Origin: a virus
Strand: one strand, 5' to 3'
DNA: 51,691 nucleotides
Virus record (IMG/VR): IMGVR_UViG_3300033075_001734
Coordinates: 1-51,691 of that record
The notes beneath the pieces are model-generated. The model did no database searches. It was given only the letters and a program-made list of their open reading frames with translations, and was not told the DNA's origin. The position numbers were made by a program, and so were the translations under genes. Positions 9,165 through 43,098 of this stretch are shown here, piece by piece; positions within the stretch are counted from its first letter, which is position 1, and each line of letters opens with the position of its first letter.

Positions 9165-9417
9165 AGAGACACTAATCTTAGAGCCTGCATTTCTTTTAAT
9201 GTATTATGGTGGTTTTACTTGGCGTGAAACCATCCATTTACCCGTTCAATATAAAAGATGGTTCGTTAATCGAATTGTTAAAGAATTGAATAAATCTTCG
9301 GGAGGAGAAGACGGTGGTGGACAGTCTAGAGCTCTTCATCAAAATTCACCCGAAACTCGTTCAATGCAAGGAATGCAAAGAACACAAACACCATCTAGGT
9401 TAAGAAGATTTACATAG
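9097..9417 (+). CDS. Hypothetical protein in +1 frame overlapping the 3' end of 8292..9164 (GTG start, or frameshift/extension product)
   Basis: The ORF is 106 aa and protein-like (ILEPAFLLMYYGGFTWRETIHLPVQYKRWFVNRIVKEL). It overlaps the upstream ORF by 68 nt. Its own start has no obvious SD, which leaves room for a programmed frameshift. Confidence 0.25.
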   Translation: MITLRRSVCRLVHRFFGLRPQDKETLILEPAFLLMYYGGFTWRETIHLPVQYKRWFVNRIVKELNKSSGGEDGGGQSRALHQNSPETRSMQGMQRTQTPSRLRRFT

Positions 9418-9435
9418 TTATTAATAATTACTTTC

Positions 9436-10536
9436 ATGACTTCTTCTTTAAATCTTCTGCGTGAATATCTCAGATTGATTTTGATTTCTGAAGGTAAGGT
9501 CGAAGACCTCGCCAAGCAGAATCCCAATATTCCTGTCATAGATCTCGCTTCTTCAGATTCAACTCCGACAAAAAAGCTTCTTCCGTGGATGGTGAAACAA
9601 GTTTCCAAAGGTGCTGACGTGGAACACGTCAGATCTGTTGCTTCTCGTTTTGCAAAAGATGGTTCTAGACTCAAGAACAAAGACATAAACTCTTATTCTG
9701 AAATTGATGAATTGGAATCTGTGCTTGATGCACTCGGTGCATCAAAGCGTTCAGAAACAATTCAGGCAAAATCAGGTGCAGTTAAGATTTATGAAGACGA
9801 CGCCTGTACTGTTTTAAGAATCGACACAAAAGAAGCTGCACAACAATATGGAAAAGGCACCAAGTGGTGCATCACAATGGAGAAGCAACAACACTATGAA
9901 ATGTATAAAGCTTCAAACGTGTTGTTCTATTACGTTCTGAGAAAAGAACCACTGAGTGATGATCTTGATAAAGTTGCTCTTGCAGTGTCGAGAGATAAAG
10001 ATAACTTTATTCAAAAAATTCAGGCTTTTGATCAAGCTGATAAAGAAATGACGCCTGATGTTGTGAGTGCACAAGCACTCACAACAGTTAAATCCGATGT
10101 CAAGTCTCAACCAAAAGCCTTTCTTGCTAGAATAAAATCAGGTGATAAATACAGTGATGAGGAATTATTTAGCTATTGGGAAAACCTGGGAACAGAACAA
10201 AACAAAATTGCATTTCTGTGTTCTACAGATCTAATCAAAAAAGAAAAACTTCAGAAACTTCTTTCAGTTGAAAATGATGAAGAAATGAAAGAGATTCTTT
10301 CAGATATGATTTCTGGGAAAGCAGAGATTAAATCTGATTATGTTATATGGCGTAATTCAGCAGGACAACTTCATCGAGACAATGATCAGCCTGCAATAAT
10401 TTATTCTGACGGATCAAAAAAATGGTATCAAAATGGAAAACTGAACAGAGACAATGATCAACCTGCAATAATTTTTGCTGACGGATCAAAAAAATGGTAT
10501 CAAAATGGTCTTGAATATGTTCCTAAGAAAAAGTGA
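9436..10536 (+). CDS. Multicopy family protein, copy A (366 aa): N-terminal helical domain, conserved WCIT core, two C-terminal HRDNDQPA/WY-NG repeats
   Basis: It is one of five paralogs (copies A-E; A-D all lie within 9436..24622, E is at 43099..44802). The N-terminus is MTSSLNLLREYLRLILISEGKVEDLAKQNP. The core is SGAVKIYEDDACTVLRIDTKEAAQQYGKGTKWCITM...NVLFYYVLRKEP. The C-terminus carries the repeats QLHRDNDQPAIIYSDGSKKWYQNGKLNRDNDQPAIIFADGSKKWYQNG. Confidence 0.7.
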   Translation: MTSSLNLLREYLRLILISEGKVEDLAKQNPNIPVIDLASSDSTPTKKLLPWMVKQVSKGADVEHVRSVASRFAKDGSRLKNKDINSYSEIDELESVLDALGASKRSETIQAKSGAVKIYEDDACTVLRIDTKEAAQQYGKGTKWCITMEKQQHYEMYKASNVLFYYVLRKEPLSDDLDKVALAVSRDKDNFIQKIQAFDQADKEMTPDVVSAQALTTVKSDVKSQPKAFLARIKSGDKYSDEELFSYWENLGTEQNKIAFLCSTDLIKKEKLQKLLSVENDEEMKEILSDMISGKAEIKSDYVIWRNSAGQLHRDNDQPAIIYSDGSKKWYQNGKLNRDNDQPAIIFADGSKKWYQNGLEYVPKKK

Positions 10537-10586
10537 TAAATTTGCATTTTATTAATGTTATTTTCCTACATATCTTTTAGGAATAA

Positions 10587-13500
10587 ATGACTATTTCAAA
10601 AGAAGAACTATCTGAGCAACTATTAATTACGCAGAAAATGACGTCTGCTATCGAAATGATGGCAAAGTCAATGTCTAAGATTGAATCTTCTTATGACACA
10701 CAGATTGCCGCAGTTGAAAAATTAACAACTGCAATCGGTAAACTTAAAGGTGAAAACCTTGAAGAACTTGACAAAACAAAGTTCACAAATCTTCAATCTG
10801 AATTTGATAAAACTGAAAAAAATGTAACAAGTTTCTCAGAAAAATTACGTGAAGTTGGAATTAATGTTGGTACGAAGTTTGTTAAACACACGTCTATAGG
10901 CGTTGCTGCATTAAGTGGTTTCGGTAGAGGAATAATCAACATACTTGCATTAGGTAGAAGTACCGCGAGTTTTTTTGCAAGTTTTGTTGATGGCGCTTTA
11001 AGTATTGGCGCCGCGATTATTTCTATTCCATTCAAGATGTTCAATGGGCTTGTTGATATGGCTGCCGCAGCAGGAGGCGGGTCAAATGAGCTCGCGCTGG
11101 CGATTGAACATCTTCGCGACGAGATGGGTAACTTAAAAGAGTCAGGTTCAAAAGCCGTTCTTGATACTGCAAAAACATTTAAAAACTTTGGTGAAACAGG
11201 ACTAAGTGTTTGGCGTGTTTTTGGATCAGTTGCTGAAAGACTTGAAACAGTCATAAAAGTTGCAACTTCAATGGGAGCAACGTTTGGTGTTCTTAAAAAT
11301 GAATTCGTTGAAAACGGTGGTGCCTTATTGGCATATCAAAAAGGTCTTGGTGTTACTGACGAACAAATGAAAGGTCTTGGCGATACGGCACTTATGATGG
11401 GTAAACCAATGTCCCGTATATTTCTTGACATGACCAAACAAACCCTTGCCCTTGGAAAAGCGTTTGATATCGATCAAAAACTTATCGGCAAAGATATGAC
11501 GAAAGCGCTTATCGATGTTGGACATTTTGGTGGCGCTACTGTTAAACAAATTGGTGTTGCGTCTGTTTATGCTCGTAAATTGGGTCTTGAACTTGATAAA
11601 ATCGTTGGAACGCTTGATTCATTTGAAACATTTGATTCTGCCGCTGAAAATGCTGCAAAATTATCACAGGCTTTCGGCGTATCAATTGATGCTTTCAAAA
11701 TGATGGAAGCACAAAGTCCTGCAGATCAACTCGATATGTTGCGAACATCATTTAGAAACGCAGGAGTTGATGCTTCAACATTTTCAAGACAACAATTAAA
11801 ACTACTTTCAACTTCAACCGGGTTGAGCGCCGAAACAGTTAAACAAGCATTTTCAGCAAAAAACTATGGAACTTCACTTGATTCAGTAAACAAAAAAGCA
11901 GATGCAGCCGAAAAGAAAACAATGTCTCAAGCTGAGGCAATGAACCAACTTGCTGACAGCATTAAACGTTTAACGCCTTCGGGAGGATCTCAACTTGGTG
12001 GTTTCTGGGAAACATTTGTTCACGGTTTCATGGGTGGTGTTCAAGCAACAAAAGAATTCCGTGACATAATCTGGAATATTAAAAGAAGTTTAAGAGAAAC
12101 AGAACTTCAAGGCGTCAGATTAGGCCGGGCATTTGTTGCAGCATTTCCTGGTATGAAAGAGTTCTTGGGTGGAATTGGTGATTTCTTTAAACCCGCAAAA
12201 TTTAAATCACTTGCGTCAGGAGTTGTTGATGTTTTTATTAACTTCATGGAAAAGTTAAAAAGTGGTCCTGCGTCTTTTGGTGATCTTATGAAATCACTGC
12301 AAGATCAGTTCTTTAAATTCTTTGATGCATCATCACCAGCTAGTCAAAAAATGATGGAAGGATTTAAGACTGTTTTAAGAACTATTTCAAGTATAGTGTC
12401 GCAAGGTATTGTTTGGGTCTCAACGAAAATTGCTGATGGTGTTGATTTTATATCTGATGTGTTAAGTGGAAATGTTGATTTAGGTAAACTGAGTAATTCT
12501 GGCTCAGAAGGTCTTGGTTTTATTTGGAACATTTTGGAACCCATGATTAAATCACTTGGAAAGGCTTGGGATCTATTATATCCAGCACTTAAGCATCTTT
12601 TTTCAATTGCCCTTACAAAATTATGGACATTCTTAAAATCTGACACAGTAACTGGGCCTTTAAAAGAATATGCACCCCACATTGCCGCTATATTGTTTGG
12701 ACCAGCATTATTACGTGCTCTTATGGCTTCAGGTGGTTGGGCATTAGGAGAAGCAGCAAAAGGCTTATTTTCTAAGGGTTCAAGCATTATGAAAGGCGTT
12801 GCAGATAAAGCCGAGAAAATGAATGAAGCCGGATCTACGCTTAAGAAAGCATCAAAAGGAAGTGATGCAGCTGAAGGAATTTCAAATGCTGCAAAATCTT
12901 CAAAAGCAGCAACTGAACTTGATAAATCTTCAAAATGGGGTGTCGAAGAGGCTGCAAAATTAGGTCTTAAACTTATTGCAATGGCTGGTGCTCTTTCATT
13001 AGGTGGAATAATGATGGCCTATGCGGTTGTTAAAATGTATGACGTGTTAAAATCGGGAGGAATCGTATCGTATAAAGACGCTGCTGCTCCATTATTGGTT
13101 TTGGGAGCAATGGTAACTGCTGCTGTTCCATTAATGTTTGCACTTAAGATTGCAGCAAATGCTGGAAGTCCTAGCGAAGTTGCAAAAGGCGGCGCGCTAA
13201 TTGCTTCAGGATTGTTAATCGTAGGTGGTGTTGGATCAATGCTAACTTATGTTTTGAACCAAGTTGGATCACCTGCAGAATTAAGTGCAGCTGGCAAAAT
13301 GATGGGAATGATGACGCTTGTGTTTCTTGGTATGGTTCCTTTGGTTTTAGGAGCGATGGCCGTCGGCGCAGTCGTTTCTGCTTCGGGTGGAACTGCCCTT
13401 GCGGCGGCAGCAGTTGGTATGGCGACAATGGGAACTGCCGTTGGGGCAGTTGCGACATTGGCGACAGTAATAATTGCTGAACTTAGAGGTATGACAATTG

Positions 13501-14903
13501 AAGCTGGATTTCAGACGAAGATTGATGCATTTTTAAGTATCATGAAAACTATACAGACATTTTCTGATACGCTTGTAAGTCTTGTAAGTTTAATGACACC
13601 ATCAATTGCCGAATTGGTATCAGGAAAAACAAAGACATTTACTGAAAAGGTAAATGCAACCATTGATATGATGAAGGAGATGATTGGTGTTTCAAATACG
13701 GGAACTGGTATCATCGGAATTGTTGAAACTGTTGTAACACAAATTAAGTCATTGTCTTCATATGCCGGAATTGGTGAATCAGCAAAAATCTTTGCTGATG
13801 TTTTAACTGCCGTGTCATCAATTATGCAATACATGACACCTAATCCTGAATTCATGAAAGCGCAAACAAGTTTATTAGGAATTGCAAGCAAACATCTTTT
13901 TGGTGATGATGTTGCAAAGTCAACAACTGATTATGTTAAGTTAATGACTACAACTGTTAAACCGATTATGAACAGTGTAATCGAATCAATGAAAGAACTG
14001 TTGAGTATATCTGTTCCTGATGTTACAAAAGCTCAAGCTCTCGGGAATTTATTAAATACGGTTTCAGGAATTATGAAAGGCATTATGCCTGATCCTGCAT
14101 CATTAAAAGCATTTTCAACAACAGCAAAAGCAGGTATCGGACCGATTGGAACAGAAATAGGTTCACTTGACGCTAGTGGTCTTGCAACGTTTATAGGATC
14201 ATATGCAGAAAAACTTGGAACTTTAATCCCAGCTCTAACGAGTGGAATATTAAACGGGTTAGCGAATAGTGTTGGTTCGTTTGATAAGTCAAAGATTGAA
14301 AGTCTTACAAAGACAGCTGATATATTAACTTCAACGGCAAATTTCATTAAATCAATATCTGACATAAGTAAAATGGACTTTTCAACAAGCAATGAATCAG
14401 AAACTGTAATTCAAAGAATGGTAACATCAATTGATAAAATCATAAGTGAAGAATCAATGAAAGGTATATTTGAAACTTCGGGAAGAATTTCGAAGTACGG
14501 CGTAGCTTTAGGCGCAATTGGAAAAACAATTACGAATAATGGTATAGTTCAAGCCCTCGCCGCCGTGGGAGATATGGTTAAACAAACGCAAATGCTTGAT
14601 GATGCATTAAACGCAGGAACTGAAATTAACGTCGATGCAAAACTTCAGAAACTTGCTCAAGTTACAGGAATTGGTGGAAAGTTTGCGTATACTGTCCAGA
14701 GCAAGGAAGTTGTCATAAATCTTAACATGCAAATTTTCATGGACGTCGCTGAAACAGAAAAAGTTCTTATCATGAACAAAAAATCAATTATTCGTGACAG
14801 ACTTAATTTTGCAACTAATACACCTAATGAAAAAGGACAAAATGTAATTCCTGAAGAGTATCAAAAAATCTTGCCTAATGTTAAACCCGATGGAGCTCCA
14901 TAA
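10587..14903 (+). CDS. Tail tape measure protein (1438 aa)
   Basis: It is very long, with a coiled-coil N-terminus and a central run of Gly/Ala-rich hydrophobic segments (LIAMAGALSLGGIMMAYAVV, MMGMMTLVFLGMVPLVLGAMAVGAVV ...) typical of tape measure proteins. It lies downstream of the chaperone-like region of a contractile-tail module. Confidence 0.65.
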   Translation: MTISKEELSEQLLITQKMTSAIEMMAKSMSKIESSYDTQIAAVEKLTTAIGKLKGENLEELDKTKFTNLQSEFDKTEKNVTSFSEKLREVGINVGTKFVKHTSIGVAALSGFGRGIINILALGRSTASFFASFVDGALSIGAAIISIPFKMFNGLVDMAAAAGGGSNELALAIEHLRDEMGNLKESGSKAVLDTAKTFKNFGETGLSVWRVFGSVAERLETVIKVATSMGATFGVLKNEFVENGGALLAYQKGLGVTDEQMKGLGDTALMMGKPMSRIFLDMTKQTLALGKAFDIDQKLIGKDMTKALIDVGHFGGATVKQIGVASVYARKLGLELDKIVGTLDSFETFDSAAENAAKLSQAFGVSIDAFKMMEAQSPADQLDMLRTSFRNAGVDASTFSRQQLKLLSTSTGLSAETVKQAFSAKNYGTSLDSVNKKADAAEKKTMSQAEAMNQLADSIKRLTPSGGSQLGGFWETFVHGFMGGVQATKEFRDIIWNIKRSLRETELQGVRLGRAFVAAFPGMKEFLGGIGDFFKPAKFKSLASGVVDVFINFMEKLKSGPASFGDLMKSLQDQFFKFFDASSPASQKMMEGFKTVLRTISSIVSQGIVWVSTKIADGVDFISDVLSGNVDLGKLSNSGSEGLGFIWNILEPMIKSLGKAWDLLYPALKHLFSIALTKLWTFLKSDTVTGPLKEYAPHIAAILFGPALLRALMASGGWALGEAAKGLFSKGSSIMKGVADKAEKMNEAGSTLKKASKGSDAAEGISNAAKSSKAATELDKSSKWGVEEAAKLGLKLIAMAGALSLGGIMMAYAVVKMYDVLKSGGIVSYKDAAAPLLVLGAMVTAAVPLMFALKIAANAGSPSEVAKGGALIASGLLIVGGVGSMLTYVLNQVGSPAELSAAGKMMGMMTLVFLGMVPLVLGAMAVGAVVSASGGTALAAAAVGMATMGTAVGAVATLATVIIAELRGMTIEAGFQTKIDAFLSIMKTIQTFSDTLVSLVSLMTPSIAELVSGKTKTFTEKVNATIDMMKEMIGVSNTGTGIIGIVETVVTQIKSLSSYAGIGESAKIFADVLTAVSSIMQYMTPNPEFMKAQTSLLGIASKHLFGDDVAKSTTDYVKLMTTTVKPIMNSVIESMKELLSISVPDVTKAQALGNLLNTVSGIMKGIMPDPASLKAFSTTAKAGIGPIGTEIGSLDASGLATFIGSYAEKLGTLIPALTSGILNGLANSVGSFDKSKIESLTKTADILTSTANFIKSISDISKMDFSTSNESETVIQRMVTSIDKIISEESMKGIFETSGRISKYGVALGAIGKTITNNGIVQALAAVGDMVKQTQMLDDALNAGTEINVDAKLQKLAQVTGIGGKFAYTVQSKEVVINLNMQIFMDVAETEKVLIMNKKSIIRDRLNFATNTPNEKGQNVIPEEYQKILPNVKPDGAP

Positions 14904-14911
14904 TTACTTTC

Positions 14912-16090
14912 ATGACTTCTTCTTTAAATCTTCTTCAAGAATATCTCAGATTGATTTTGATTTCTGAAGGCAAGGTCGAAGACCTTGCTAAACAGAATCC
15001 CAATGTTCCTGTCATAGATCTCGCTTCTTCAGATTTAACTCCGACAAAAAAGCTTCTTCCGTGGATGGTGAAACAAGTTTCCAAAGGTGCTGACGTGGAA
15101 CACGTCAGATCTGTTGCTTCTCGTTTTGCAAAAGATGGTTCTAGACTCAAGAACAAAGACATAAACTCTTATTCTGAAATTGATGAATTGGAATCTGCGC
15201 TTGATTCTTTGGGAGCGTCAAAACGCTCTCAGGAAATTCAGGCAAAATCAGGTGCAGTTAAGATCTATGAAGACGACGCATGCGTCGTCTTAAGAATTGA
15301 CACAAAAGAAGCTGCTCAACAGTATGGAAAAGGCACCAAGTGGTGCATCACAATGGGGAGGCAACAACACTATGAAGAGTACAAAGCTTCAAACGTGTTG
15401 TTCTATTACGTTCTGAGAAAAGAACCACTGAGTGATGATCTTGACAAAGTTGCTCTTGCAGTAATGAGAGATGAAAAAAACGTTGTGAAACAAGTTCAGG
15501 CTTTTAATCAAGCTGATAAAAAAATGACACCTGAAAATGCGAGTGTGAGTGCACAAGCACTCACAGCAGTTAAATCAGATGTCAAGTCTCAACCAAAAGC
15601 CTTTCTTGCTAGAATAAAGTCGGGTGATAAATACAGTGATGAGGAATTGTTTAGCTATTGGGAAAACCTGGGAACAGAACAGAACAAACTTTCATTTCTG
15701 TGTTCTGAACAGTTAAACGAAAAAGATACGCTTCGAAAACTTCTTCAGGTTGAATCTGACAAAAAAATGAAAGAAATTCTTTCAGATATGATTTCTGGGA
15801 AAGCAGTTTCTTTTTATGATGGAATTAAATGGAAAAATAAAAACGGTCAACTACACAGAGACAATGATCAACCTGCAGTGATTTATTCTGACGGATCAAA
15901 AGTTTGGTATCAAAATGGTCAACGTCATCGAGACAATGATAAGCCTGCAATGATTTATGCTGATGGATCAAAAGAATGGTATCGAAATGATCTACTTCAT
16001 CGAGATAATGATCAACCTGCAGTGATTTATGATGATGGAACAAAAGAATGGTATCGAAATGGTCTTAAATACGTTCCTAAGAAAAAATGA
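14912..16090 (+). CDS. Multicopy family protein, copy B (392 aa), four C-terminal repeats
   Basis: It has the same N-terminal and core sequence as copy A, with four HRDNDxPA...WY.NG repeats. Its ATG is 8 nt after the tape-measure stop, within the shared 'TAATTACTTTC-ATG' junction. Confidence 0.7.
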   Translation: MTSSLNLLQEYLRLILISEGKVEDLAKQNPNVPVIDLASSDLTPTKKLLPWMVKQVSKGADVEHVRSVASRFAKDGSRLKNKDINSYSEIDELESALDSLGASKRSQEIQAKSGAVKIYEDDACVVLRIDTKEAAQQYGKGTKWCITMGRQQHYEEYKASNVLFYYVLRKEPLSDDLDKVALAVMRDEKNVVKQVQAFNQADKKMTPENASVSAQALTAVKSDVKSQPKAFLARIKSGDKYSDEELFSYWENLGTEQNKLSFLCSEQLNEKDTLRKLLQVESDKKMKEILSDMISGKAVSFYDGIKWKNKNGQLHRDNDQPAVIYSDGSKVWYQNGQRHRDNDKPAMIYADGSKEWYRNDLLHRDNDQPAVIYDDGTKEWYRNGLKYVPKKK

Positions 16091-16150
16091 TAAGTAAACA
16101 ATAGGAATTTATATGAAAGATAAGAATCGTTAATTAATTGAAAGTATATA

Positions 16151-19100
16151 ATGTCAGGTACAAAAACAGGAACAGGCGGGTTTGAAATTGATAACAAAAC
16201 GTACAGTTTTGATCCTGGTGATCCGTCTTCACCTGGACAAGAACCGATACAAACAGATCGTGGCGATATAATTGTTGATCATACTCCTAAAGATCTTGGA
16301 AAGAAAACTCGTGCAACGCTTGGGAAATATTTAAGCGATGTAACAAAAGGTGAAGCTGGTTCTAACACACGAAGATCAAACACTTTTACCGTGGATCCTC
16401 CAAGATCATCTGAGCAACCTGATGAAATAATGTTATCTGACGACAAGGGAAATCCTATTAAATTAACGCCATCACCAAATTCATCACAGTTTTCAAGAGA
16501 ATCTGCCGAACATGATAATCGGGGGGTTGTTTTTGATTCACCTGATTTAAAGTCATGGTCTCAAACAATTTCCAATCCAAGAACTGAAATTCACGATAAA
16601 AACATTAGTGGACATACACTTTTACCCAGCGTGGGAAAAGACAAAGTTCCAGCTCCAATTGAATCGTATAGAAAGACAGTTTTAAGAGCAAATCGTTTTT
16701 CTTCAGTAGATCGCATGTCAAATGACAAGACATATAAAATCAAAGGAAGAACTTATAATGGAGCACAATTAAAACAAGTCGGCGCTATGCTTTCGCTCCG
16801 TGGAAGTCAAGAATTTCCAGCCGCGTTTAATGACAGTGTAAATCCTGTTAACGCTGGTTCTGTTGCCGGTGCAATTCTTCCAAGCCCTAATCAATTGGGA
16901 ATTCTTAAGGTTCCAAATAAATTATTACAAACTCAAGACGCTCTTGAGCATCTTGCAAATACAACAGACGAACCAATTGAACTTGAAATAGCTCCTTTGG
17001 GAAATCAATCTTGGGGAGCATTAAATAACGTTGAAGAACCTTTTGCTGGTGTTTTGAACGTCGGTATGATTGCGATGGCTCTCGCAATGCAAGCTGCAAT
17101 GATGTTAGCGTTTAAAGGTTTGGGATCTTTGATCGGATTAATGGGAAATTCAAAAGTACCTGTGAGTTCAACAAAAGATTATGCCGGAAGATATACATTG
17201 GGTGAATATTTAACTTCTCCCAATAAAGGAAAAAGTGGATTAAGTTTCCCACCAAATTTAGCTTTATTATTGGGTCTAAAAGGAACACGACATCCGTTTG
17301 ATTCTGCTTTAGATGCAGGTGCTAAAGCATTTTTTATGGGAGGAAAAACAACTACAGAAACACTTTCTTCTGCACTGTCTGATGCACTTTCAGATTCAAC
17401 TTCAGCGGGTCATTTAATTATTGTTTCACGTCTTATCATAAGAACTGGTCAATCTGTTGCGAGTGACATATCAAAAATAGGAAAAGCATTTGCATCAAAT
17501 CCTGTTAGTGGGATTAAGAGCGTTGTTAGTTTATTAGCAAATATACGTAAATCTAAGTTAATTGTAGCGATGAACTTATTTGCTACGTTAGGTGACGTTA
17601 TTTTAAGCGAATCAGATTGGGAAAAAGATCCTGAAGGTCGTGGCTCACCAATGGATGCATTCGAAGACAGCTCGCCGGGAGCTTCTATATCTAAAAACAG
17701 ATTAAAAAACAAACTCAAATTAGCGTGGGCATCGAACAGATCGCCGGCGATGTATCTTATTCCAGATTCTCTTGCGTCAATGAGTGTCACCGATACTCAT
17801 TTAGGTGGATTTAAAGGTGCTTTAGGAATTCATGATCCTGATACGAAATCAAACATTATCGTTCAAAGTATGAATGATAAAGAAAATGGCACAAGGATTG
17901 CAAGGAACTCAAAGAAACCTGATCAAATTGATGTTGTAAAAATGGAGGCATTACTTGAATCTGAATATATGCCATTTTATTTTCATGATTTACGAACGAA
18001 TGAAATCATTTCATTTCATGCATTTATGGCATCTTTGTCTGATGATTTTACGCCGACCTGGGAAAATGTAGAAGGTTTTGGTCGTGTTGAACCTGTGAAA
18101 ATTTACAAAGGAACACAACGTAAAATTGGAATGAGTTTTTATGTTGTTTCAACGAGCGAAGAAGACTTTGATGAAATGTGGGTAAAAATAAATAAACTTG
18201 TTACGCTCATTTATCCACAATATACCAAAGGAAGAACACTTCAAAGCGAAGATTCAAAATACAAATTTACACAACCCTTTAGTCAACTTGTGGGTGCAAG
18301 TCCACTCATAAGAATTCGTCTTGGTGATCTGTTTAAATCAAATTATTCTAGATTTGCGCTTGCTAGATTATTTGGTGCAGCAGATAACGATATGAAACTT
18401 AATGATCAAAATATAAAATTTGAAGGTGTAACAAAAGAAGATTTAGATAAGGTTGTTAATGACGCAAAAGCAAACCCCACTACAGTATATAAACTTAGCT
18501 TCGGTGGTTGGAAAAGACAAGAAGATGGGCCTGGTTCTTCTGAACCTCCTTATGCAGAAACGCTTAACGTTGATTATGGTGATTTACATTATTTTAATTT
18601 CAAAATAGTTAAACAATCGGCAATTAAATCACCAACTAACTTAAGTGGTTCTGATGTTATTGTAGAAACATTTTTAATGACGCCTGATGATATGATTAGA
18701 GAATTTGGTTATGATAAAAAGGAAGCGTCAAAAAATCATTATAGGTTGGGTTATAAATACGGTTTTTCCGGAAATCCAAAAACTAGAGTTATATCCGCAA
18801 AATATATTGTTCCTCGAGGTGCATTAGTACCTGATAGAAATTCATTAAACGTTGCGTTTGCAGCAAACAACAAAATAAACCAAAATAAAACGAACATTGA
18901 TGAACTTTCAAAATTTTTAAGCGAAAAAAATGCCCTTGTTAAATCGTTCAGTTCAGTTCAAGGTAAAGGTTTGGCAGGAGTAATTGATTCATTGAATTTT
19001 GATTGGTATGATAAAATTACATGGGAAATAAAACCTGGCAGCAAAGCGCCTAAAATGTGTAAAATAACTCTTGGATTTTCTCCTGTTCATGATATTTCAC

Positions 19101-19198
19101 CGGGAATTGATCATTTTGGCTATAACAGAGCACCTGTGTATAACGTCGGTGGTCTTATGGGTCAAGGATATGACAGTGATGGGAAGAAAGAAGAGTAA
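16151..19198 (+). CDS. Large putative tail/baseplate structural protein (1015 aa)
   Basis: The call rests on position (immediately after the tape measure region in a tail module) and size. No motif was recognised. Confidence 0.3.
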   Translation: MSGTKTGTGGFEIDNKTYSFDPGDPSSPGQEPIQTDRGDIIVDHTPKDLGKKTRATLGKYLSDVTKGEAGSNTRRSNTFTVDPPRSSEQPDEIMLSDDKGNPIKLTPSPNSSQFSRESAEHDNRGVVFDSPDLKSWSQTISNPRTEIHDKNISGHTLLPSVGKDKVPAPIESYRKTVLRANRFSSVDRMSNDKTYKIKGRTYNGAQLKQVGAMLSLRGSQEFPAAFNDSVNPVNAGSVAGAILPSPNQLGILKVPNKLLQTQDALEHLANTTDEPIELEIAPLGNQSWGALNNVEEPFAGVLNVGMIAMALAMQAAMMLAFKGLGSLIGLMGNSKVPVSSTKDYAGRYTLGEYLTSPNKGKSGLSFPPNLALLLGLKGTRHPFDSALDAGAKAFFMGGKTTTETLSSALSDALSDSTSAGHLIIVSRLIIRTGQSVASDISKIGKAFASNPVSGIKSVVSLLANIRKSKLIVAMNLFATLGDVILSESDWEKDPEGRGSPMDAFEDSSPGASISKNRLKNKLKLAWASNRSPAMYLIPDSLASMSVTDTHLGGFKGALGIHDPDTKSNIIVQSMNDKENGTRIARNSKKPDQIDVVKMEALLESEYMPFYFHDLRTNEIISFHAFMASLSDDFTPTWENVEGFGRVEPVKIYKGTQRKIGMSFYVVSTSEEDFDEMWVKINKLVTLIYPQYTKGRTLQSEDSKYKFTQPFSQLVGASPLIRIRLGDLFKSNYSRFALARLFGAADNDMKLNDQNIKFEGVTKEDLDKVVNDAKANPTTVYKLSFGGWKRQEDGPGSSEPPYAETLNVDYGDLHYFNFKIVKQSAIKSPTNLSGSDVIVETFLMTPDDMIREFGYDKKEASKNHYRLGYKYGFSGNPKTRVISAKYIVPRGALVPDRNSLNVAFAANNKINQNKTNIDELSKFLSEKNALVKSFSSVQGKGLAGVIDSLNFDWYDKITWEIKPGSKAPKMCKITLGFSPVHDISPGIDHFGYNRAPVYNVGGLMGQGYDSDGKKEE

Positions 19199-19203
19199 TT
19201 CTA

Positions 19204-19497
19204 ATGGCATTCAGTAGATACACAAAAACACCTAAACTCAATTTCGGCGCCCAAGTGGGAACTTCAAACATAATTCCTATTATGCGAGCCGCGATTAAAA
19301 ATGGGTCACTTCCAGTGAAAATAACCATACTTCGGGGCGCAGAAAGACTTGATACAATGGCTGGCTCAATTTATGGTGATTCTCGTTATTGGTGGATTCT
19401 TGCTGCATCAAGTGATATAGGTTGGGGGTTACAAGTTCCTGCTGGGACTATAATTAAGATTCCCGATTTATCTGACGTAATATCGTTGACTAGTTAA
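19204..19497 (+). CDS. Phage tail protein X-like / LysM-like small protein (97 aa)
   Basis: The segment ITILRGAERLDTMAGSIYGDSRYWWILAASSDIGWGLQVPAGTIIKIP fits the P2 gpX/LysM pattern (GDTL...YGD..W..I..AN.L....L..G..L.IP). Its context is baseplate-like. Confidence 0.45.
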   Translation: MAFSRYTKTPKLNFGAQVGTSNIIPIMRAAIKNGSLPVKITILRGAERLDTMAGSIYGDSRYWWILAASSDIGWGLQVPAGTIIKIPDLSDVISLTS

Positions 19498-19509
19498 TAA
19501 TTACTTTCA

Positions 19510-20691
19510 ATGACTTCATCTTTAAATCTTCTTCAAGAATATCTCAGATTGATTTTGATTTCTGAAGGTAAGGTCGAAGACCTCGCCAAGCAGAATCCCA
19601 ATATTCCTGTCATAGATCTCGCTTCTTCAGATTCAACTCCGACAAAAAAGCTTCTTCCGTGGATGGTGAAACAAGTTTCCAAAGGTGCTGACGTGGAACA
19701 CGTCAGATCTGTTGCTTCTCGTTTTGCAAAAGATGGTTCTAGACTCAAGAACAAAGACATAAACTCTTATTCTGAAATTGATGAATTGGAATCTGCGCTT
19801 GATTCTTTGGGAGCGTCAAAACGCTCTCAGGAAATTCAGGCAAAATCGGGTGCAGTTAAGATCTATGAAGACGACGCATGCGTCGTCTTAAGAATCGATA
19901 CAAAAGAAGCTGCACAACAGTATGGAAAAGGCACCAAGTGGTGCATCACAATGAGCGAAGAACAACACTATGAAGAGTACAAAGCTTCAAACGTATTATT
20001 CTATTACGTTCTGAGAAAAGAACCTTTAGGAAATAATCTTGACAAAGTTGCTCTTGTTATGATGAGAGATGAAAATAATTCTGTTCAACAGATTCAAGCT
20101 TTTGATCAGGCTGATGAAGAAATGACACCCAAAAAAGCAGGGGTAAGTGCACAAGCACTCACAGCAGTTAAATCAGATGTCAAGTTTCAACCAAAAGCCT
20201 TTCTCACTAAAATAAAGTCGGGTGATAAATACAGTGATGAGGAACTCATCACATATTGGTCACAACTAGGAACTGAAAAAGATAAACTTGTATTTCTGTG
20301 TTCTGAACAGTTAAACGAAAAAGATACGCTTCGAAAACTTCTTCAGGTTGAATCTGAAAAAAAAATGAAAGAAATTCTTTCAGATTTGATTTCTGGGAAA
20401 GCAGTTTCTTTTTATGATGGAATTAAATGGAAAAATTCAGCAGAACAACTTCACAGAGACGATGATCAACCTGCAGCGATTTATGTTGACGGATCAAAAG
20501 AATGGTATCGAAATGGTCAACGTCACAGAGATAATGATCAACCTGCAGTGATTTATGTTGATGGAACAAAATATTGGTATCGAAATGATCTACTTCATCG
20601 AGATAATGATCAACCTGCAATAATTTATAGCGACGGAATAAAACGTTGGTATAAAAATGGTCTTGAATACGTTCCTAAGGGAAATAAATGA
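19510..20691 (+). CDS. Multicopy family protein, copy C (393 aa), four C-terminal repeats
   Basis: It shares a 259-nt tract that is 100% identical with copy A (19537..19795 vs 9463..9721). Its 3' half is near-identical to copy B. Confidence 0.7.
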   Translation: MTSSLNLLQEYLRLILISEGKVEDLAKQNPNIPVIDLASSDSTPTKKLLPWMVKQVSKGADVEHVRSVASRFAKDGSRLKNKDINSYSEIDELESALDSLGASKRSQEIQAKSGAVKIYEDDACVVLRIDTKEAAQQYGKGTKWCITMSEEQHYEEYKASNVLFYYVLRKEPLGNNLDKVALVMMRDENNSVQQIQAFDQADEEMTPKKAGVSAQALTAVKSDVKFQPKAFLTKIKSGDKYSDEELITYWSQLGTEKDKLVFLCSEQLNEKDTLRKLLQVESEKKMKEILSDLISGKAVSFYDGIKWKNSAEQLHRDDDQPAAIYVDGSKEWYRNGQRHRDNDQPAVIYVDGTKYWYRNDLLHRDNDQPAIIYSDGIKRWYKNGLEYVPKGNK

Positions 20692-23567
20692 CTTTCGAAA
20701 AATTAGACGACATATTCAGAATGATGACACCCACAGATTTGATGGGTGCTCAGAAACTTTCTTTAGGAACAGACAAGAGCATTGATACGAGCCTTGCAAA
20801 AGATTTGATAAACATCATATACGGTACTTCAGGTGCAAGAACAGTTGATCAAATTAGTAAAGATTTAACAACGTTTAGTGCCAAGGCGGAAGAAGCATCA
20901 CAACTTGAACAATTTAAGCGTATTATTCAGTTCTATAAAACAGGCGCGTCTTGTACGGCTTTTGGTTCAGCACCTTTTATTGCAATGGGTTCATCTGGAA
21001 AAGATCCTGTTAATAATGTTACGTTTGAACAAATCATCGGAACTGATATTAAATTAAATGATGTTAAACCATCAAAATCAATGGGAATAATGTTGTGTAA
21101 TTCTGGGTTTATGAGCCCAGCAATAAGAAATTCAGAAAAAGTTGAAAAATTTTTAAATTTCATGCCAACTATAGTCGCTTCTCGAATGATTCCATTACTT
21201 GATGTTGAATTTGCTTTTAAACGTGGTGTTCCTGAAGCAAATATATCGCAACCTCATATGTGGTCACCTGGGCTTTTAAAGTTCTTATTAGGTGGTGATA
21301 ATTCAGTTCTCAAAGATTCAGAATCACCTACATCTATATTGATTAATGCAAATGAAAAACATGGTCTCGACGGTGCGCAATCTGTATCAGGAATGGAAAT
21401 GTTTACTTCACCTCAAACATTGATTAATACAGATCCAACGTCAAACGTAGGGCGCTATGTTGACGTAATTGATCCCATGCGACCATTGATGACACTTGAA
21501 AGTTTTTCAGTGAATATCACACCTAACGTTGGTTTGTATTCATATAAGAAAGCAACTGTCGTTTTCAAATTACATGACAGATCAAGATTGTCTGAAATTG
21601 CAGATCTTATAAGACCACAGGTGTATCAAGATAAAGATTCTGCACCTACTGTTTGGATTACTTATGGTTGGAGACACCCGGTCGAGCCTGGAAATCCTTA
21701 CGCAGATTTTATCAATGAAAATATGCTTGTTAGAGATGCGTATGGAATCATAAACACTCAATTCGAATTTGATCAAATGGGTCAAGTAAACATAACATTA
21801 TCATTATGGACTAAAGGGATCCCAGAAATGAGAACGTCAAATGTTAATGGTGATGGTTCTTTGCAAATAATCAAAGATATACAAGACATTGCAAAAAAAG
21901 TTGCTCGATATAAAAATGCACTAGGAATCTCTTCGAATGGAGGCACAAATCGTGAGATTCGTGGATTTACATTACTTGAATCAGCAGAAAGTGGGACCTA
22001 TCCTTCTGAAATTTCGTCAGACGATATTAAAAAATCACTTAGTGATATCAAAACAAGCTTAAACAGTAAAGATCTAAAACTTGATCAAACAGCAGTTAAA
22101 GGTCTTATTGAACAACTTGAAAAGTTGTATAACCCAAAATATAAAGGTTACGTTAAATTTAAAGAAACACTTGAAACGCAATCAACAATAAAAACAAATG
22201 AAAAATTTCAACAGGTTATTAGCGGTGCAGATCCGTTTTTACCTTCAATTAAAAAGGACGAAAAAAGATTCATTGAATCAAAATCAGTTTCTCACCCATT
22301 AACAAGCCTAATTGAATCTATTAACGAATATTATGGTGAATCTGAAATAAAAGATTTGAAAAATCCAACGGGAACTAAAGTTAAAGGTTTTCAAAAGAAA
22401 GCAGTTTCACTTGGTAAACTAATTTCTGTGTTTATGGCAGAAGCCCTAAAATCACTTGACGGAATTGACGAATTACAATTGTATTTTTATCAGTTTAATA
22501 GTCATGCCGGAAGTTGTGCAGCAGTAAACATCGCTGAATTTCCAATCGACATGCCAGTGTTCTTAGATCAATATCGTGATCACATACAACGAAAAGGAAA
22601 TGAACGAGTTACACTTGAAGAATTTTTAAGACTTGTTATTGATTCGCAGTTACATGATTCAAGAGCAATAGGATATGGTCACAGAAAATATTTCGCTCCA
22701 TACGATCCTTCAAATAAATCACCCGCGCTAAAAAAGGGAATTCCACCTGAAAAATATGAACTTGCAAAAGGTCAGTTTATTATGCCCGCAATTGAGTTGT
22801 ATATTGAAACTGTTCAAGCATCAACATCATTATCAGAACATGATAAATTAAATCAAATTCAAACTTCTTCTGGAAATAATCGTGCAGAACAATACACAAA
22901 AATTATGAGACTTCATATTTTTGACAAGACAAATAATCCTTACAAAATAGCAGATTTATTACTGCAAGGTGACGATGAAATGTCTTTTGTTGAAGCAGAT
23001 AGTGAATATGTTAAACAACAATCGATGTTAAATAGTCTCACACCTAATGAAATCTATAATAGTCATACTGATGGCGACAAATTATTAAAAAACAAAGAAA
23101 GCAAAACCGTTAGTAATAAAGACGTTAAAACGTTTGTGTCAAAAATGGTTCCGACAATTATTCATGGAATGAACGCTTCAAGTGTTTCAAGCGCAAACTT
23201 AGCATCAAAACAAGATCCATTGTTAGCGACAGCGCAAATGCAGGCTTTGGCAAAAGGTCACGGTAAACCTCAGACTTTGTCGCCTAACGGCGCTGACGTA
23301 GGAGGTTTACCTTTAAGAATTATTCCTGCATCATTGACATTAGATTCATTAGGTTGCCCAATGTTATCTTATGGTCAAGTGTTCTTTATTGACTTTAATA
23401 CTGGAACGACTGTTGATAACATGTATCTTATGACTGGGTTGACGCACAATATTTCACCAGGGAAGTTTAGTTCACAAATGACGTTAACTTTTCATGACGC
23501 GTATGGAAAATTCTTCAGTGCACCAAAAATTACAGATTACATTAAGTCTCTTAAAGGAACAGAATGA
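20688..23567 (+). CDS. Large putative baseplate/tail structural protein (959 aa)
   Basis: The call rests on position (after the gpX-like gene) and size. It has an ATGA overlap with copy C upstream and with copy D downstream. No motif was recognised. Confidence 0.25.
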   Translation: MTFEKLDDIFRMMTPTDLMGAQKLSLGTDKSIDTSLAKDLINIIYGTSGARTVDQISKDLTTFSAKAEEASQLEQFKRIIQFYKTGASCTAFGSAPFIAMGSSGKDPVNNVTFEQIIGTDIKLNDVKPSKSMGIMLCNSGFMSPAIRNSEKVEKFLNFMPTIVASRMIPLLDVEFAFKRGVPEANISQPHMWSPGLLKFLLGGDNSVLKDSESPTSILINANEKHGLDGAQSVSGMEMFTSPQTLINTDPTSNVGRYVDVIDPMRPLMTLESFSVNITPNVGLYSYKKATVVFKLHDRSRLSEIADLIRPQVYQDKDSAPTVWITYGWRHPVEPGNPYADFINENMLVRDAYGIINTQFEFDQMGQVNITLSLWTKGIPEMRTSNVNGDGSLQIIKDIQDIAKKVARYKNALGISSNGGTNREIRGFTLLESAESGTYPSEISSDDIKKSLSDIKTSLNSKDLKLDQTAVKGLIEQLEKLYNPKYKGYVKFKETLETQSTIKTNEKFQQVISGADPFLPSIKKDEKRFIESKSVSHPLTSLIESINEYYGESEIKDLKNPTGTKVKGFQKKAVSLGKLISVFMAEALKSLDGIDELQLYFYQFNSHAGSCAAVNIAEFPIDMPVFLDQYRDHIQRKGNERVTLEEFLRLVIDSQLHDSRAIGYGHRKYFAPYDPSNKSPALKKGIPPEKYELAKGQFIMPAIELYIETVQASTSLSEHDKLNQIQTSSGNNRAEQYTKIMRLHIFDKTNNPYKIADLLLQGDDEMSFVEADSEYVKQQSMLNSLTPNEIYNSHTDGDKLLKNKESKTVSNKDVKTFVSKMVPTIIHGMNASSVSSANLASKQDPLLATAQMQALAKGHGKPQTLSPNGADVGGLPLRIIPASLTLDSLGCPMLSYGQVFFIDFNTGTTVDNMYLMTGLTHNISPGKFSSQMTLTFHDAYGKFFSAPKITDYIKSLKGTE

Positions 23568-24622
23568 ATCTTCTGCGTGAATATCTCAGATTGATTTTGA
23601 TCTCTGAAGGAAGAGTTGAAGATCTTGCTAAGAGGAATCCAAATGTAGACGTTCAAAGCCTTGCCGCAGTTGATTCCACACCTACAAAAAAGCTTCTTCA
23701 ATGGATGATTAAACAAGTGTCAAAAGGTGCTGACGTGGAACACGTCAAATCTGTAACTTCTCGTTTTATTAAAGATGGTTCTAGGCTTCCCAATAAAGAC
23801 ATATATTTTTATTCTGAAATTGATGATTTAGAAGTTGAATTAGACATACTTGGTGCATCAAAGCGTTCTGAAACAATACAAGTTAAGACAGGCGCCGTTA
23901 AGATTTTTGAAGATAAAACATGCATTGTATTGAGAATTGATACAAAGAAAGCTGCACAATTGTACGGAAGAAATACAACCTGGTGCATAACACAAGAAAA
24001 TACGGGAGATTACGAAGGTTACAAGTCTGAAAATGCGTTATTTTATTTCGTAATAAGGAAAAAGCAATTAAAAGACAATTTTGATAAAGTTGCTGTTCAA
24101 GTTGTTAGAGATGATTATAATCAAATTGATGATTTAAAATGTTACAATCAACTAGATGATCAAAATGATCCTATTTCTTCCAAATTATCTTCAGAAGTTA
24201 TTGAAAGTATTAAATTTGACGCAGAATCACAACCCTATTGTTTAAGTGATATGATTTTATCGTGGAATAATTGTAAAACTTTTTTTGCCAAAATGGTATT
24301 TTTGATTGATCGTAATTTTAGTGTAGAAGATCTCTTGTTAGAACTTTATTTAATTGAAGAAGACGAAGACGTAAAAGAAATTCTGCAAGATCTAATTGAT
24401 AAAAAAGCGTACATTGACGAGGAGTTAGATTCAATCGTGTGGATAAAAAACGGTCGATTGAATCGTGTTGGTGATAAACCTGCCTTGATCAGTGCATCTG
24501 GGAAATTTGAATATTGGCGTTCTGGAAAATTGCACAGAGATAACGACAAACCAGCTGTTATAGATGGAAGTTCAAAACAATGGTTTAAGCATGGAGTTCA
24601 ATATGAACCTAAAGGTTTGTAA
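23564..24622 (+). CDS. Multicopy family protein, copy D (352 aa), divergent, two C-terminal repeats
   Basis: It has MNLLREYLRLILISEGRVEDLAKRNPN at the N-terminus, a conserved core (GAVKIFEDKTCIVLRIDTKKAAQLYGRNTTWCIT...LFYFVIRKK) and the C-terminal repeats LNRVGDKPALISASGKFEYWRSGKLHRDNDKPAVIDGSSKQWFKHG. Confidence 0.65.
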   Translation: MNLLREYLRLILISEGRVEDLAKRNPNVDVQSLAAVDSTPTKKLLQWMIKQVSKGADVEHVKSVTSRFIKDGSRLPNKDIYFYSEIDDLEVELDILGASKRSETIQVKTGAVKIFEDKTCIVLRIDTKKAAQLYGRNTTWCITQENTGDYEGYKSENALFYFVIRKKQLKDNFDKVAVQVVRDDYNQIDDLKCYNQLDDQNDPISSKLSSEVIESIKFDAESQPYCLSDMILSWNNCKTFFAKMVFLIDRNFSVEDLLLELYLIEEDEDVKEILQDLIDKKAYIDEELDSIVWIKNGRLNRVGDKPALISASGKFEYWRSGKLHRDNDKPAVIDGSSKQWFKHGVQYEPKGL

Positions 24623-42631: not shown

Positions 42632-43041
42632 AAGACTTTGTGAGGAAACTCACAGGGAGCACAAACTGAAGTTAAAATTCAAGCTGACAAAATCATAAAC
42701 AAGTATAGGTGCAAGTCCTGTTCTCACCACAAATGCGAAAGCATAAATTCTTGGTGAGATAGCCCAATTAGCAGAGGCTTAGTGATTAAGAATCTTAGAT
42801 TATTGCAACAGTTTAACTGAGTTAATTTCGAAGGAATCAGATTCAATCGACCACTATCATACTGAAATCATGTGTCAATGAAAGTTCAATTCTTTCTCGG
42901 GTCTCCAAGATATGAAAATATCTTTTTATGACTCGGTAACTTAAAGGTAAAGTAGGCACATCTAAGGACTGATGTGATAGTTTAAATGTAGTGAATCATA
43001 CCGTTAAAAAATTAACGTGACGTAAGTCATAACAAATCTGC

Positions 43042-43082
43042 GCGGCCCGAATAGGATACATTCGGGCCGCTTTTTTGTTTTT
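43042..43082 (+). terminator. Rho-independent terminator
   Basis: The GC-rich stem is GCGGCCCGAA / TTCGGGCCGC with a 9-nt loop, followed by TTTTTTGTTTTT. Confidence 0.75.
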
Positions 43083-43098
43083 GAGCTATATTTAGATT

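Follow-up and report, generated by a model that had tools for sequence, protein, structure and literature searches.

Results

The paralog family and its surroundings

The window, i.e., the whole 51,691-nt stretch of DNA that was analyzed, comes from a myovirus-like phage in which one gene has been copied into at least 5 gene junctions, 4 of them between tail or baseplate genes; related phages carry it at further junctions. The family members (paralogs A to E), the short motif in front of 3 of them and the neighboring genes needed below are arranged as follows.

9424..9435, + strand: motif copy A, ATAATTACTTTC, directly followed by the ATG at 9436
9436..10536, + strand: paralog A, 366 aa, N-terminal domain followed by C-terminal MORN-like repeats
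10587..14903, + strand: tape-measure-like gene, 1438 aa
14900..14911, + strand: motif copy B, ATAATTACTTTC, directly followed by the ATG at 14912
14912..16090, + strand: paralog B, 392 aa
19497..19509, + strand: motif copy C, ATAATTACTTTC followed by a single additional A and then the ATG at 19510
19510..20691, + strand: paralog C, 393 aa, identical to P0003
20684..20696, + strand: start context of gene 20688..23567 (g20688), ATAAATGACTTTC, nearly identical to the motif and located at the 3′ edge of copy C
23564..24622, + strand: paralog D, 352 aa, about 50% identical to A–C, motif absent
43099..44802, + strand: paralog E, 567 aa, with an extra C-terminal domain, motif absent

The family protein has a conserved N-terminal domain without a recognized relative and a C-terminal part that qualifies as MORN-like, consisting of tandem repeats of about 23 residues that form β-hairpins. 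A PDB sequence search gave no match, nor did a scan of metagenome contigs using the family alignment. The possibility that its N-terminus derives from orfA, a small conserved gene upstream of the tape-measure gene in distant relatives, was rejected (hhalign probability 0.6%). The copies, of which there are at least 5 per genome, are intact and diversifying, and they exchange sequence by gene conversion. A megablast search for a close cultured relative of the phage found no match; the best protein match was Microcystis phage Mel-JY01, at 30–39%. Paralog E (43099..44802) is a fifth family member and was missing from the list of the first, sequence-only reading.

A short motif precedes three paralogs

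Counted over the whole window, the 11-mer TAATTACTTTC occurs exactly 3 times (at 9425, 14901 and 19498), always on the + strand and always adjoining a paralog start codon on its 5′ side. That the same sequence of about 11 nt stands before A, B and C had been seen in the sequence-only reading; its third position is 19498–19508 and not 19499–19509, and it lies directly before the ATG at A and B but not at C, where the junction reads TAATTACTTTC-A-ATGACTTC with the extra A at 19509. The block common to all 3 copies slightly exceeds that first description and comprises the 12 bases ATAATTACTTTC. A longer block, TTAATAATTACTTTC, is common to A and C, and the exact 19-mer TAATTACTTTCATGACTTC is found at 9425–9443 and 14901–14919 and nowhere else in the window (chance expectation, 0.04 matches allowing up to 3 mismatches). 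The sequences upstream of the other 46 listed gene starts are unrelated to the motif. The objection that the motif might be a generic start context of this genome was therefore not borne out.

The motif is closely associated with upstream stop codons. The TAG of g9199 at 9415–9417 lies 18 nt before the ATG of copy A; the TAA of the tape-measure ORF (14901–14903) lies within motif B and forms the first three bases of the 11-mer, just as the first reading stated; and the TAA of the LysM-like gene (19495–19497) is immediately 5′ of motif C and overlaps its first base. Since the spacing from motif to ATG differs by 0 or 1 nt, the motif is non-coding, and an upstream extension of the paralog coding sequence was rejected because of this 1-nt indel and an in-frame stop upstream. 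An Rfam search found no match anywhere in the window, folding of the junctions from −40 to +60 revealed no RNA structure (z-scores −0.5 to +0.7), and a scan detected no terminator-like site beside the motifs.

The paralogs that lack the motif begin differently. As had also been noted, the ATG of paralog D overlaps the TGA of the 959-aa gene 20688..23567 in an ATGA; an AAGGA Shine-Dalgarno-like sequence lies inside this upstream gene, and the homology of D to A, B and C begins only at codon 5 of the latter. The TGA of paralog C in turn overlaps the ATG of gene 20688..23567. Upstream of paralog E is a terminator-like hairpin followed by TATATTTAGATT-ATG, an arrangement that differs from that of the motif-bearing copies. 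In general, family copies without the motif have ATGA overlaps (copy D and two relatives) or spacers of 5–17 nt.

In an alignment of 4 copies with their flanks, homology is lost upstream of ATAATTACTTTC and past the TGA(TAA) stops. On this comparison the motif is the left (5′) edge of the repeated unit and travels with the copied gene.

Filled and empty sites in related phages

Across the window and related phages, at least 7 different gene neighborhoods contain family members preceded by the motif, either intact or with a single change. Three of these are of the window type (g9199 and the tape-measure gene; the tape-measure gene and g16151, the gene following copy B; the LysM gene and g20688). 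The others lie between gp15 and the sheath gene (L132/L133, L005), between orf75 and a 78-aa gene in a head module (L003/L082), alongside a divergent gene (L004) and, on the minus strand of L003, at the end of a contig. A scan of IMG/VR for the motif returned at least 119 matches, nearly all of them due to chance, and the motif was next to a paralog only in contigs in which the family had been found before.

Relatives at 90–99% amino acid identity differ in whether the A, B and C sites are filled or empty, and the 5′ neighbors are swapped at the motif. All three sites are empty in L220/L221 (about 94%), as are A and B in L218 (about 90%); the segment 9418–10539, which holds paralog A, is missing from L218 and L221. 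Taking these close relatives together, copies A, B and C were gained. The family is also absent from all 80 loci that encode relatives of the 1015-aa neighbor (0/80), and gene order is kept in the 4 of these 80 in which it was checked (L134–L137, 40–60% amino acid identity). Paralog B takes the position where relatives have a conserved gene of 75–91 aa, orf75/76, which is missing from the window. We considered whether the 60 nt after copy B are a remnant of orf75/76, and this was not significant (253/500 and 302/1000 shuffles scored as well).

The first reading had regarded the motif as a junction signature or a conserved insertion site. As a signature it holds good, marking the left boundary of the duplicated segment and recurring in related phages. 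As an insertion site it mostly does not, because the motif moves with the gene into unrelated neighborhoods, the empty A site of close relatives contains nothing resembling it, and no target-site duplication was found at the junctions compared with empty sites. Two observations nevertheless keep part of that idea alive. The empty B and C sites start with TAATTA and TACTTA, respectively, right after the upstream stop codon: the 3′ flank of the tape-measure gene is TAATTA-ACCCGAG in L218 and L221 versus TAATTA-CTTTCATG in the window, a 6-nt microhomology with the motif, and that of the LysM gene is TGA-TACTTA in the empty L221 versus TGA-TATTTA-CTTTCA in the filled L214. These sequences suggest microhomology at the junctions. 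In addition, the exact 12-mer in L220/L221 joins the stop of orf76 to the start of g16151 with no paralog there. The microhomologies are 6 nt long and AT-rich, and the empty A site has none.

Conservation of the motif and exchange between copies

The motif varies less than synonymous sites. In 9 motif-bearing copies compared over their first 73 codons, a set that takes in only copies with a recognizable motif, 2 of 12 motif columns vary versus 59–64% of third codon positions (P about 0.001–0.003). Mean pairwise identity is 0.94 in the motif, 0.87 in the coding sequence, 0.73 at third positions and 0.36 in the 20 nt further upstream. Gene conversion among copies could also homogenize the 5′ edge without selection. 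The orthologous copy at the gp15 site in L217 has a degenerate motif, so the requirement for it is not absolute. Between L004 and L217, the gene and its 3′ flank are 94–100% identical and the 5′ neighbors are unrelated, which points to recombination at the 5′ edge. The flanks of L002 are identical to those of the window, and its A copy differs in a mosaic pattern in which 83 of 129 differences match other copies.

Discussion

Based on these findings, the best explanation, and one that we hold on balance to be right, is that the motif is a short, non-coding linker at gene boundaries with the structure (TAA)TAATTACTTTC(A)-ATG. The geometry of stops and starts tips us slightly toward the further proposal that it would act as a portable stop-to-start linker supporting coupled translation, a role already put forward in the sequence-only reading. 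The distance from the upstream stop to the ATG is 8, 12 and 18 nt in the window and 9–18 nt in relatives. A stop 8–18 nt from the ATG, or the TAA of the motif itself, is found at A, B and C of the window, at the B copy of L002, in L003b, L005 and L132 and at the C copy of L214; this geometry holds for every motif-bearing copy with a co-directional upstream gene. There is no Shine-Dalgarno-like 4-mer at −18 to −5 of A, B or C. Ribosomes that terminate on the upstream late gene may therefore re-initiate at the ATG of the cassette. Only 15 of 44 other window genes (34%) have such a 4-mer, so its lack at A, B and C argues only weakly for coupling. Against coupling as a general rule, the motif-bearing copies in L004 and on the minus strand of L003 have no co-directional ORF within 150 nt upstream; the leader must act differently there, or these copies need a promoter.

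We suggest a plausible scheme for how such a linker would be kept and spread. It may be retained for providing the cassette with a functional start context at any landing site. Its AT-rich first half, TAATTA, could supply microhomology for the illegitimate recombination or deletion events that make the junctions. The B junction in particular would fit a deletion between two TAATTA sequences, one following the tape-measure stop and the other belonging to an orf76-motif-paralog arrangement; such a deletion would leave the tape-measure stop inside the motif and orf75/76 missing. The linker may have originated as the native spacer between orf76 and g16151, since one relative has the 12-mer there without a paralog. 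This relation can be read either way, as origin or as footprint.

The motif is a tidy example of phage gene shuffling at gene boundaries, not a new kind of element. What the locus offers is a base-resolved view of how an accessory gene was amplified in the best-conserved region of a tailed-phage genome while leaving that region intact: the gene fits precisely between one stop codon and the start that follows, a 12-nt linker keeps both neighbors readable, and at least 1 insertion displaces a conserved small gene beside the tape measure. Should the linker turn out to work as a reusable "stop-restart" module, it would offer a compact natural tool for adding genes to polycistronic phage operons and a useful marker for such cassettes in metagenomes. 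What the amplified MORN-repeat family does is probably of greater interest.

Transcription offers an unlikely, though not negligible, alternative to the linker: the motif would be a minimal promoter for a leaderless mRNA, the cassette bringing its own transcription signal. A −10-like AATAAT, CATAAT or TATAAT would end 7–8 nt before the ATG, with transcription starting at the A of the ATG or one base earlier. NATAAT is indeed located at −13 to −8 (A and B) or −14 to −9 (C and most relatives) relative to the ATG, agreeing with the leaderless spacing in which the −10 element ends about 7 nt before the A of the ATG; L005 carries a perfect TATAAT; all motif-bearing copies start with ATG; and in several motif-less copies TATATT or TATAAATA-like sequences lie about as far from the start. 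A promoter would also explain expression of the uncoupled copies in L004 and on the L003 minus strand, the former having a divergent upstream gene and a 36-nt spacer with a plausible TTGTTA-16-AATAAT. However, a σ70-type scan of 7–26 kb gave 57 sites, fewer than the 65 in shuffled sequence, and the matches at A and C reach only 9/12 while B, which has no −35, has none, so that a σ70 promoter is not supported. The T4 late-promoter consensus TATAAATA is upstream of no gene in the window. Moreover, the variants ATATTTAC (ATATTT; L001, L132, L214) weaken the −10 hexamer, the invariant part TTACTTTC would correspond to the discriminator and start region, not to the −10, and L221 has this motif in front of g16151, a gene midway in a late operon.

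Also improbable, in our estimation, is that the motif has no function and merely constitutes the last 12 bases of the duplicated segment, kept identical by recency and gene conversion. The first 60–300 nt of A, B and C in the window are 93–100% identical, with mosaic 100% blocks, and with 5′ coding ends so nearly identical, identical upstream bases are expected. The decay of the motif in the orthologous L217 copy, and the fact that D, E and a number of further family members function in the absence of the motif, fit this view as well. Yet the motif is more conserved than third codon positions in copies from different phages that are 64–80% identical in protein, it fronts a different gene without a paralog in L220/L221, and the edge of homology falls at the same base in at least 7 contexts.

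We give little credence to the idea that the motif is a recombination or attachment site, at which a nuclease, a recombinase or motif-motif recombination via a circle would insert the cassette into motif-like targets. The solitary 12-mer at an unoccupied junction in L220/L221, the half-motifs after the stops at the empty B and C sites, the resemblance of ATAAATGACTTTC at the start of g20688 to the motif at the 3′ edge of C, and the GIY-YIG and HNH endonuclease genes that occur in these phages would be in line with it. But the motif is on the 5′ side only; flanking direct repeats are limited to AT-rich 6–8-mers; the best terminal inverted repeat is 8/10 and lies within the Lys-rich coding end, the 3′ ends sharing only TGA(TAA); the empty A site has no related sequence; and ATAAATGACTTTC is native to g20688, given that the empty L221 site has it as well. 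Equally far-fetched to us is the specific form in which the 12-mer would be the crossover site of cassette shuffling, for example through excised mini-circles, and a promoter-less gene would hop between the stop-start junctions of late operons. If this were true, the solitary motif between orf76 and g16151 would be an unoccupied docking site, and TAATTA and TACTTA would be degenerate ones. A transposable element or insertion sequence is not supported, there being no target-site duplication, no convincing terminal inverted repeats and, as tested, no transposase, recombinase or nuclease encoded by the cassette.

Returning to the linker, one of its closest counterparts would be translational coupling, in which genes of polycistronic phage or bacterial operons are joined by stop-start overlaps (ATGA) or short spacers; coupling normally requires no specific conserved spacer sequence. 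Like coupled pairs, the motif-bearing copies have a stop within about 20 nt of the start on the same strand (with the exceptions of L004 and the L003 minus-strand copy), no strong ribosome-binding site of their own at A, B and C, and tightly packed co-directional neighbors. Unlike the usual case, one conserved spacer sequence is reused here at many junctions, at which coupling is a presumed function. The T7 gene 10 "epsilon" translational enhancer is UUAACUUUA; in RNA, the motif (UAAUUACUUUC) is likewise a pyrimidine-rich, ACUUU-containing leader just upstream of the start codon, a likeness that spans only about 6 nt and may serve as a lead only.

Morons are typically single-copy and come with a promoter and terminator of their own. 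Juhala et al. in 2000 and Clark et al. in 2001 reportedly described morons and conserved boundary linkers of lambdoid phages that favor modular exchange. As there, an extra gene that is missing in relatives sits precisely between two conserved genes, with breakpoints at gene boundaries; unlike morons, one gene has been amplified here to at least 5 copies and brings along no more than a leader of 12 nt. Free-standing homing endonuclease genes (seg, mob) lie between conserved T4 genes (Edgell et al. 2010, PMC2988022). The paralogs resemble them in being dispersed, presence/absence-polymorphic genes between essential genes of close relatives, but the cassette protein has no nuclease domain, its genes are paralogs that undergo gene conversion, and there is no evident cleavage-site logic. 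PeSLs, the mobile regulatory cassettes of T4-type phages, consist of a strong σ70-like early promoter and a terminator stem-loop in hyperplastic regions, and their recombination via excised mini-circles has been proposed (Arbiol et al. 2010, PMC2839356; Comeau et al. 2014, PMC4122927). The 12-nt motif differs from PeSLs in having neither a strong σ70 promoter (−35 and −10) nor an adjacent terminator stem-loop, and in its location within the late tail module and its link to a single gene family. Both, however, are short conserved non-coding gene-boundary sequences that flank variable non-essential genes, many per genome, and both are found at the breakpoints of insertion, deletion and replacement between close relatives.

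The A, B and C junctions

The phage is myovirus-like, has a G+C content of ~35% and carries almost every gene on the plus strand. It has no close relative among deposited phages: megablast gave no match, and the best protein matches are to Microcystis phage Mel-JY01 (30-39% identity). The five paralogs, all on the plus strand, are distributed as follows.

Gene order in the window, 5' to 3'
28-3036 and 3103-6150: two tail-sheath paralogs (1002 and 1015 aa)
6164-6958: GIY-YIG endonuclease gene
then: tail tube gene and two small genes
then: baseplate-hub gene (PF12322, phrog_150) and 72-aa gene g9199
9436..10536, plus strand: paralog A
10587..14903: 1438-aa tape-measure-like gene (TMP)
14912..16090, plus strand: paralog B
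then: 1015-aa gene g16151 and 97-aa LysM-like baseplate gene (phrog_7145)
19510..20691, plus strand: paralog C
then: 959-aa gene g20688
23564..24622, plus strand: paralog D
then: family A DNA polymerase fragment
43099..44802, plus strand: paralog E

The sequence-only reading had proposed that copies A, B and C share one sequence directly before their start codons. Over all 51,691 bases, exact matches to TAATTACTTTC occur at 9425, 14901 and 19498 only, each just 5' of a paralog ATG, and A and B agree exactly over a 19-mer that takes in ATGACTTC (chance expectation 0.04 matches); the shared motif is real and beyond chance. At copy C the motif is present as described, with coordinates that had been placed one base too high, and one extra A separates it from the ATG. 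The TAA within the B motif is indeed the tape-measure stop codon, and D starts with an ATGA overlap with its upstream gene, as reported before. The motif is non-coding, because its spacing to the ATG is 0 or 1 nt depending on the copy and an in-frame stop lies upstream. A generic gene-start context, which would undermine the observation, does not explain it: in the 30 nt upstream of 49 starts, nothing motif-like is found except at A, B and C. An SD-like 4-mer at -18..-5 precedes 15 of 44 other genes, compared with 10% of random positions; among paralogs A-E only D has such a sequence (AAGGA).

When the four copies A-D were aligned with 100-nt flanks, the left limit of similarity was ATAATTACTTTC, extended to TTAATAATTACTTTC for A and C, and on the right similarity ran to the stop codons, which read TGATAA in A and B and, in C, merge with the start of the following gene. 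D is homologous to A-C only from the fifth codon of the latter onward.

Gain of the paralogs at empty sites

Of the 80 loci retrieved with g16151 as query, none encodes the family. Four examined loci (L134-L137, 40-60% aa identity) retain the order hub, g9199, TMP, g16151, LysM, g20688, polymerase, in which g20688 directly adjoins LysM on one side and the polymerase on the other. Closer relatives were reached via members of the hub protein's 90% cluster: L220/L221 (~94% aa) lack a paralog at the A, B and C sites, and L218 (~90% aa; same contig as L214) lacks one at A and B. At single-base resolution, a spacer of 46-48 nt separates g9199-TAA from the TMP ATG at the empty A site; the window has 9418-10539 as an insert placed precisely at the boundary of the g9199 stop and this spacer, of which the right half, TTCCTACATATC.TTTAGGAATAAATG, is still there. 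At the B site, relatives have TAATTA-ACCCGAG after the TMP stop, and the window has TAATTA-CTTTC-ATG. The C site is TGA-TACTTAATAGTCAATAA-ATGACTTTC when empty and TGA-TATTTACTTTCA-ATG when filled, in L214. Based on these comparisons, copies A, B and C are gains, with B a replacement, and the sites taken by B and C had a TAATTA-like hexamer beforehand, at the present start of the motif. Distant relatives (L135-L137, L142, L143, L154, L157 and others) have a conserved 80-115-aa gene directly 5' of the tape-measure gene, between the g9199 and TMP homologs, which is absent from the window, L218 and L221; its homology to the paralog was ruled out (hhalign probability 0.6%).

What B replaced is a conserved small gene of 75-91 aa, orf75/76, carried between TMP and g16151 by seven related loci (close, L218 and L221; distant, L134, L135, L137, L140 and L142), with a likely counterpart in L136 and a further copy in the head-gene neighbourhood of L003/L082. 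The region spans 14904-16150 in the window vs 8570-8819 in L218 and 8985-9246 in L221, and orf75/76 has no match anywhere in the whole window. In L220/L221 the exact 12-mer stands between orf76 and g16151 with no paralog present (...AAGAAAGA-ATAATTACTTTC-G-ATG), its TAA being the orf76 stop codon. In L003/L082 the 3' end of orf75 is almost identical and leads into the TAATAATTACTTTCA-ATG of a paralog. Taken together, these two arrangements indicate a linker able to serve a different gene; it would be either the native orf76|g16151 spacer, acquired by the family, or the footprint of a lost copy. An ancestor with TMP-TAATTA...orf76...TAATTACTTTC-paralog could have lost the segment between both TAATTA repeats, which would yield exactly the window's B junction. 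We infer such an origin for B, since it would account for both the absent orf75/76 and the tape-measure stop inside the motif.

The motif in relatives and turnover of the copies

Although the family has 267 database relatives at E <= 0.001, the majority have just MORN-like repeats in common; the whole protein is common to ~20 of them (49-95% identity). We surveyed the flanks on contigs that carry close relatives.

Motif (exact or with one change) before a family ATG
same three sites: near-identical phages L001, L002
C site: L214 (~90% aa identity)
between gp15-like and sheath genes: L132/L133, L005
after a 75-aa gene, head-gene neighbourhood: L003/L082 (paralog with internal deletion)
adjoining a divergently transcribed gene: L004
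contig end, minus strand: L003

The motif thus travels with the gene. Family members without it are D, E, the L130 copy and two types flanking the terminase gene (L129, L216); the orthologous gp15-site copy of L217 has a degenerate motif. Between L004 and L217, the gene and 3' flank are 94-100% identical and the sequence 5' of the start is unrelated; since likeness ends upstream of the start, the 5' edge of the cassette is a recombination breakpoint.

Paralogs A, B and C are variation hot spots, with mosaic gene-conversion tracts, in genomes (window, L001, L002) otherwise 99-100% identical. On either side of copy A, L002 matches the window at 50/50 in every 50-nt block, over ~230 nt on the 5' side and, counted from the stop codon, over at least 650 nt on the 3' side; copy A itself has patchy differences and two extra repeats, and 83 of its 129 substitutions agree with copy B or C of the window. 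In pairwise profiles, A, B and C alternate between blocks of 100% and blocks of 70-85% identity. The MORN-like repeats number 2 to 4, so that the same site encodes 366 aa in the window and 415 aa in L002.

Possible functions of the motif

We explain the motif mainly by duplication of the gene together with a short, apparently constrained leader, and weighed four readings of its role. The first, to which we give somewhat better than even chances, is that it may act as a portable stop-restart linker. In every motif-bearing copy with a co-directional upstream neighbour, the neighbour's stop either precedes the ATG by 8-18 nt or coincides with the TAA of the motif, a spacing compatible with putative termination-reinitiation coupling; motif-less copies have ATGA overlaps or spacers of 5-17 nt. 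For two copies with the motif, the nearest 150 nt upstream hold no co-directional ORF, and a leaderless promoter, our second reading and an unlikely one, would permit a leaderless transcript there, with a -10-like NATAAT ending 7-8 nt before the ATG. However, a promoter scan of the region gave no enrichment, B has no -35, and the late-promoter motif TATAAATA is not used in the window. No RNA structure was found at the junction, and no Rfam match in the window.

Hitch-hiking without function, ranked third, is also doubtful. Among nine copies bearing the motif, the 12-mer has a mean pairwise identity of 0.94, as against 0.87 for the first 73 codons, 0.73 for the third positions of these codons and 0.36 for the next 20 nt upstream, and 2 of 12 motif columns vary vs 59-64% of third positions (binomial P ~0.001-0.003), in a test biased by its input of only copies with a recognisable motif. 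Gene conversion could also contribute to this conservation. A dedicated recombination site, ranked last, seems improbable; copies A-D are not bracketed by direct repeats within their 100-nt flanks, have no motif in common at the 3' end and lack convincing inverted termini.

Among described phenomena, the PeSLs of T4-type phages come closest; these conserved non-coding modules border variable genes and mediate insertions, deletions and replacements (PMC2839356, PMC4122927). A role at breakpoints is common to both, but the present element has neither the promoter nor the stem-loop of a PeSL, and is a sequence of 12 nt, located within the late tail module and linked to a single amplified gene family. 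In position it also recalls morons, yet without its own promoter and terminator, and free-standing homing-endonuclease genes (PMC2988022), yet without a nuclease. The junction is a clean yet unsurprising case of boundary-mediated shuffling; worth following up are the amplification of an uncharacterised MORN-repeat gene across the structural module and the occurrence of the linker by itself in a relative.

The cassette protein and other observations

None of the five copies has a Pfam match, PADLOC gave no match for B, D and E, PHROGs gave weak matches only, to families of unknown function, and PDB has no related sequence. Paralog E (567 aa) is extended at its C-terminus by an additional domain of ~200 aa, without Pfam match, and has a strong terminator-like hairpin upstream instead of the motif; relatives have orthologs (P0016 and L128), and the L130 copy most like E (P0014, 398 aa) does not have this domain. 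Neither strand of the 467 nt upstream of E (42632-43098) has an ORF of 50 aa or more; the stretch has no Rfam match and terminates in a hairpin, GCGGCCCGAATAGGATACATTCGGGCCGC-TTTTTT; L130 has a gap of like size with a like terminal hairpin before the equivalent gene. The stretch could encode a small RNA.

The tandem sheath-like genes share only ~32% identity and are both kept in L132/L133. The free-standing GIY-YIG gene lies between the second of these and the tube gene, where L133/L220 have a 109-aa gene and a 556-aa minus-strand gene instead or in addition, making this another variable junction. In L216 (15581-21206), the portal gene is called as a 2010-aa product in which three intein-splicing matches interrupt Portal_T4, and a 556-aa ORF of L082 appears intein-like in its translation.

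Of 21 occurrences of the hexamer TAGATT, 6 (26515, 31023, 36767, 38198, 39381 and 43093) fall within 30 nt before a gene start, a ~12-fold enrichment, and the genes at 26521 and 43099 both have ATATTTAGATT-ATG. The hexamer is a candidate phage promoter or start-context element. The starts of g20688 (ATAAATGACTTTC, 20684-20696) and the tape-measure gene (ATAAATGACTATTTC, 10583-10597) resemble ATAATTACTTTC, the paralogs, too, open with ATGACTT, and AAT[GT]ACTTTC has only five occurrences in the window. This likeness may reflect shared ancestry of start regions, recombination or chance.
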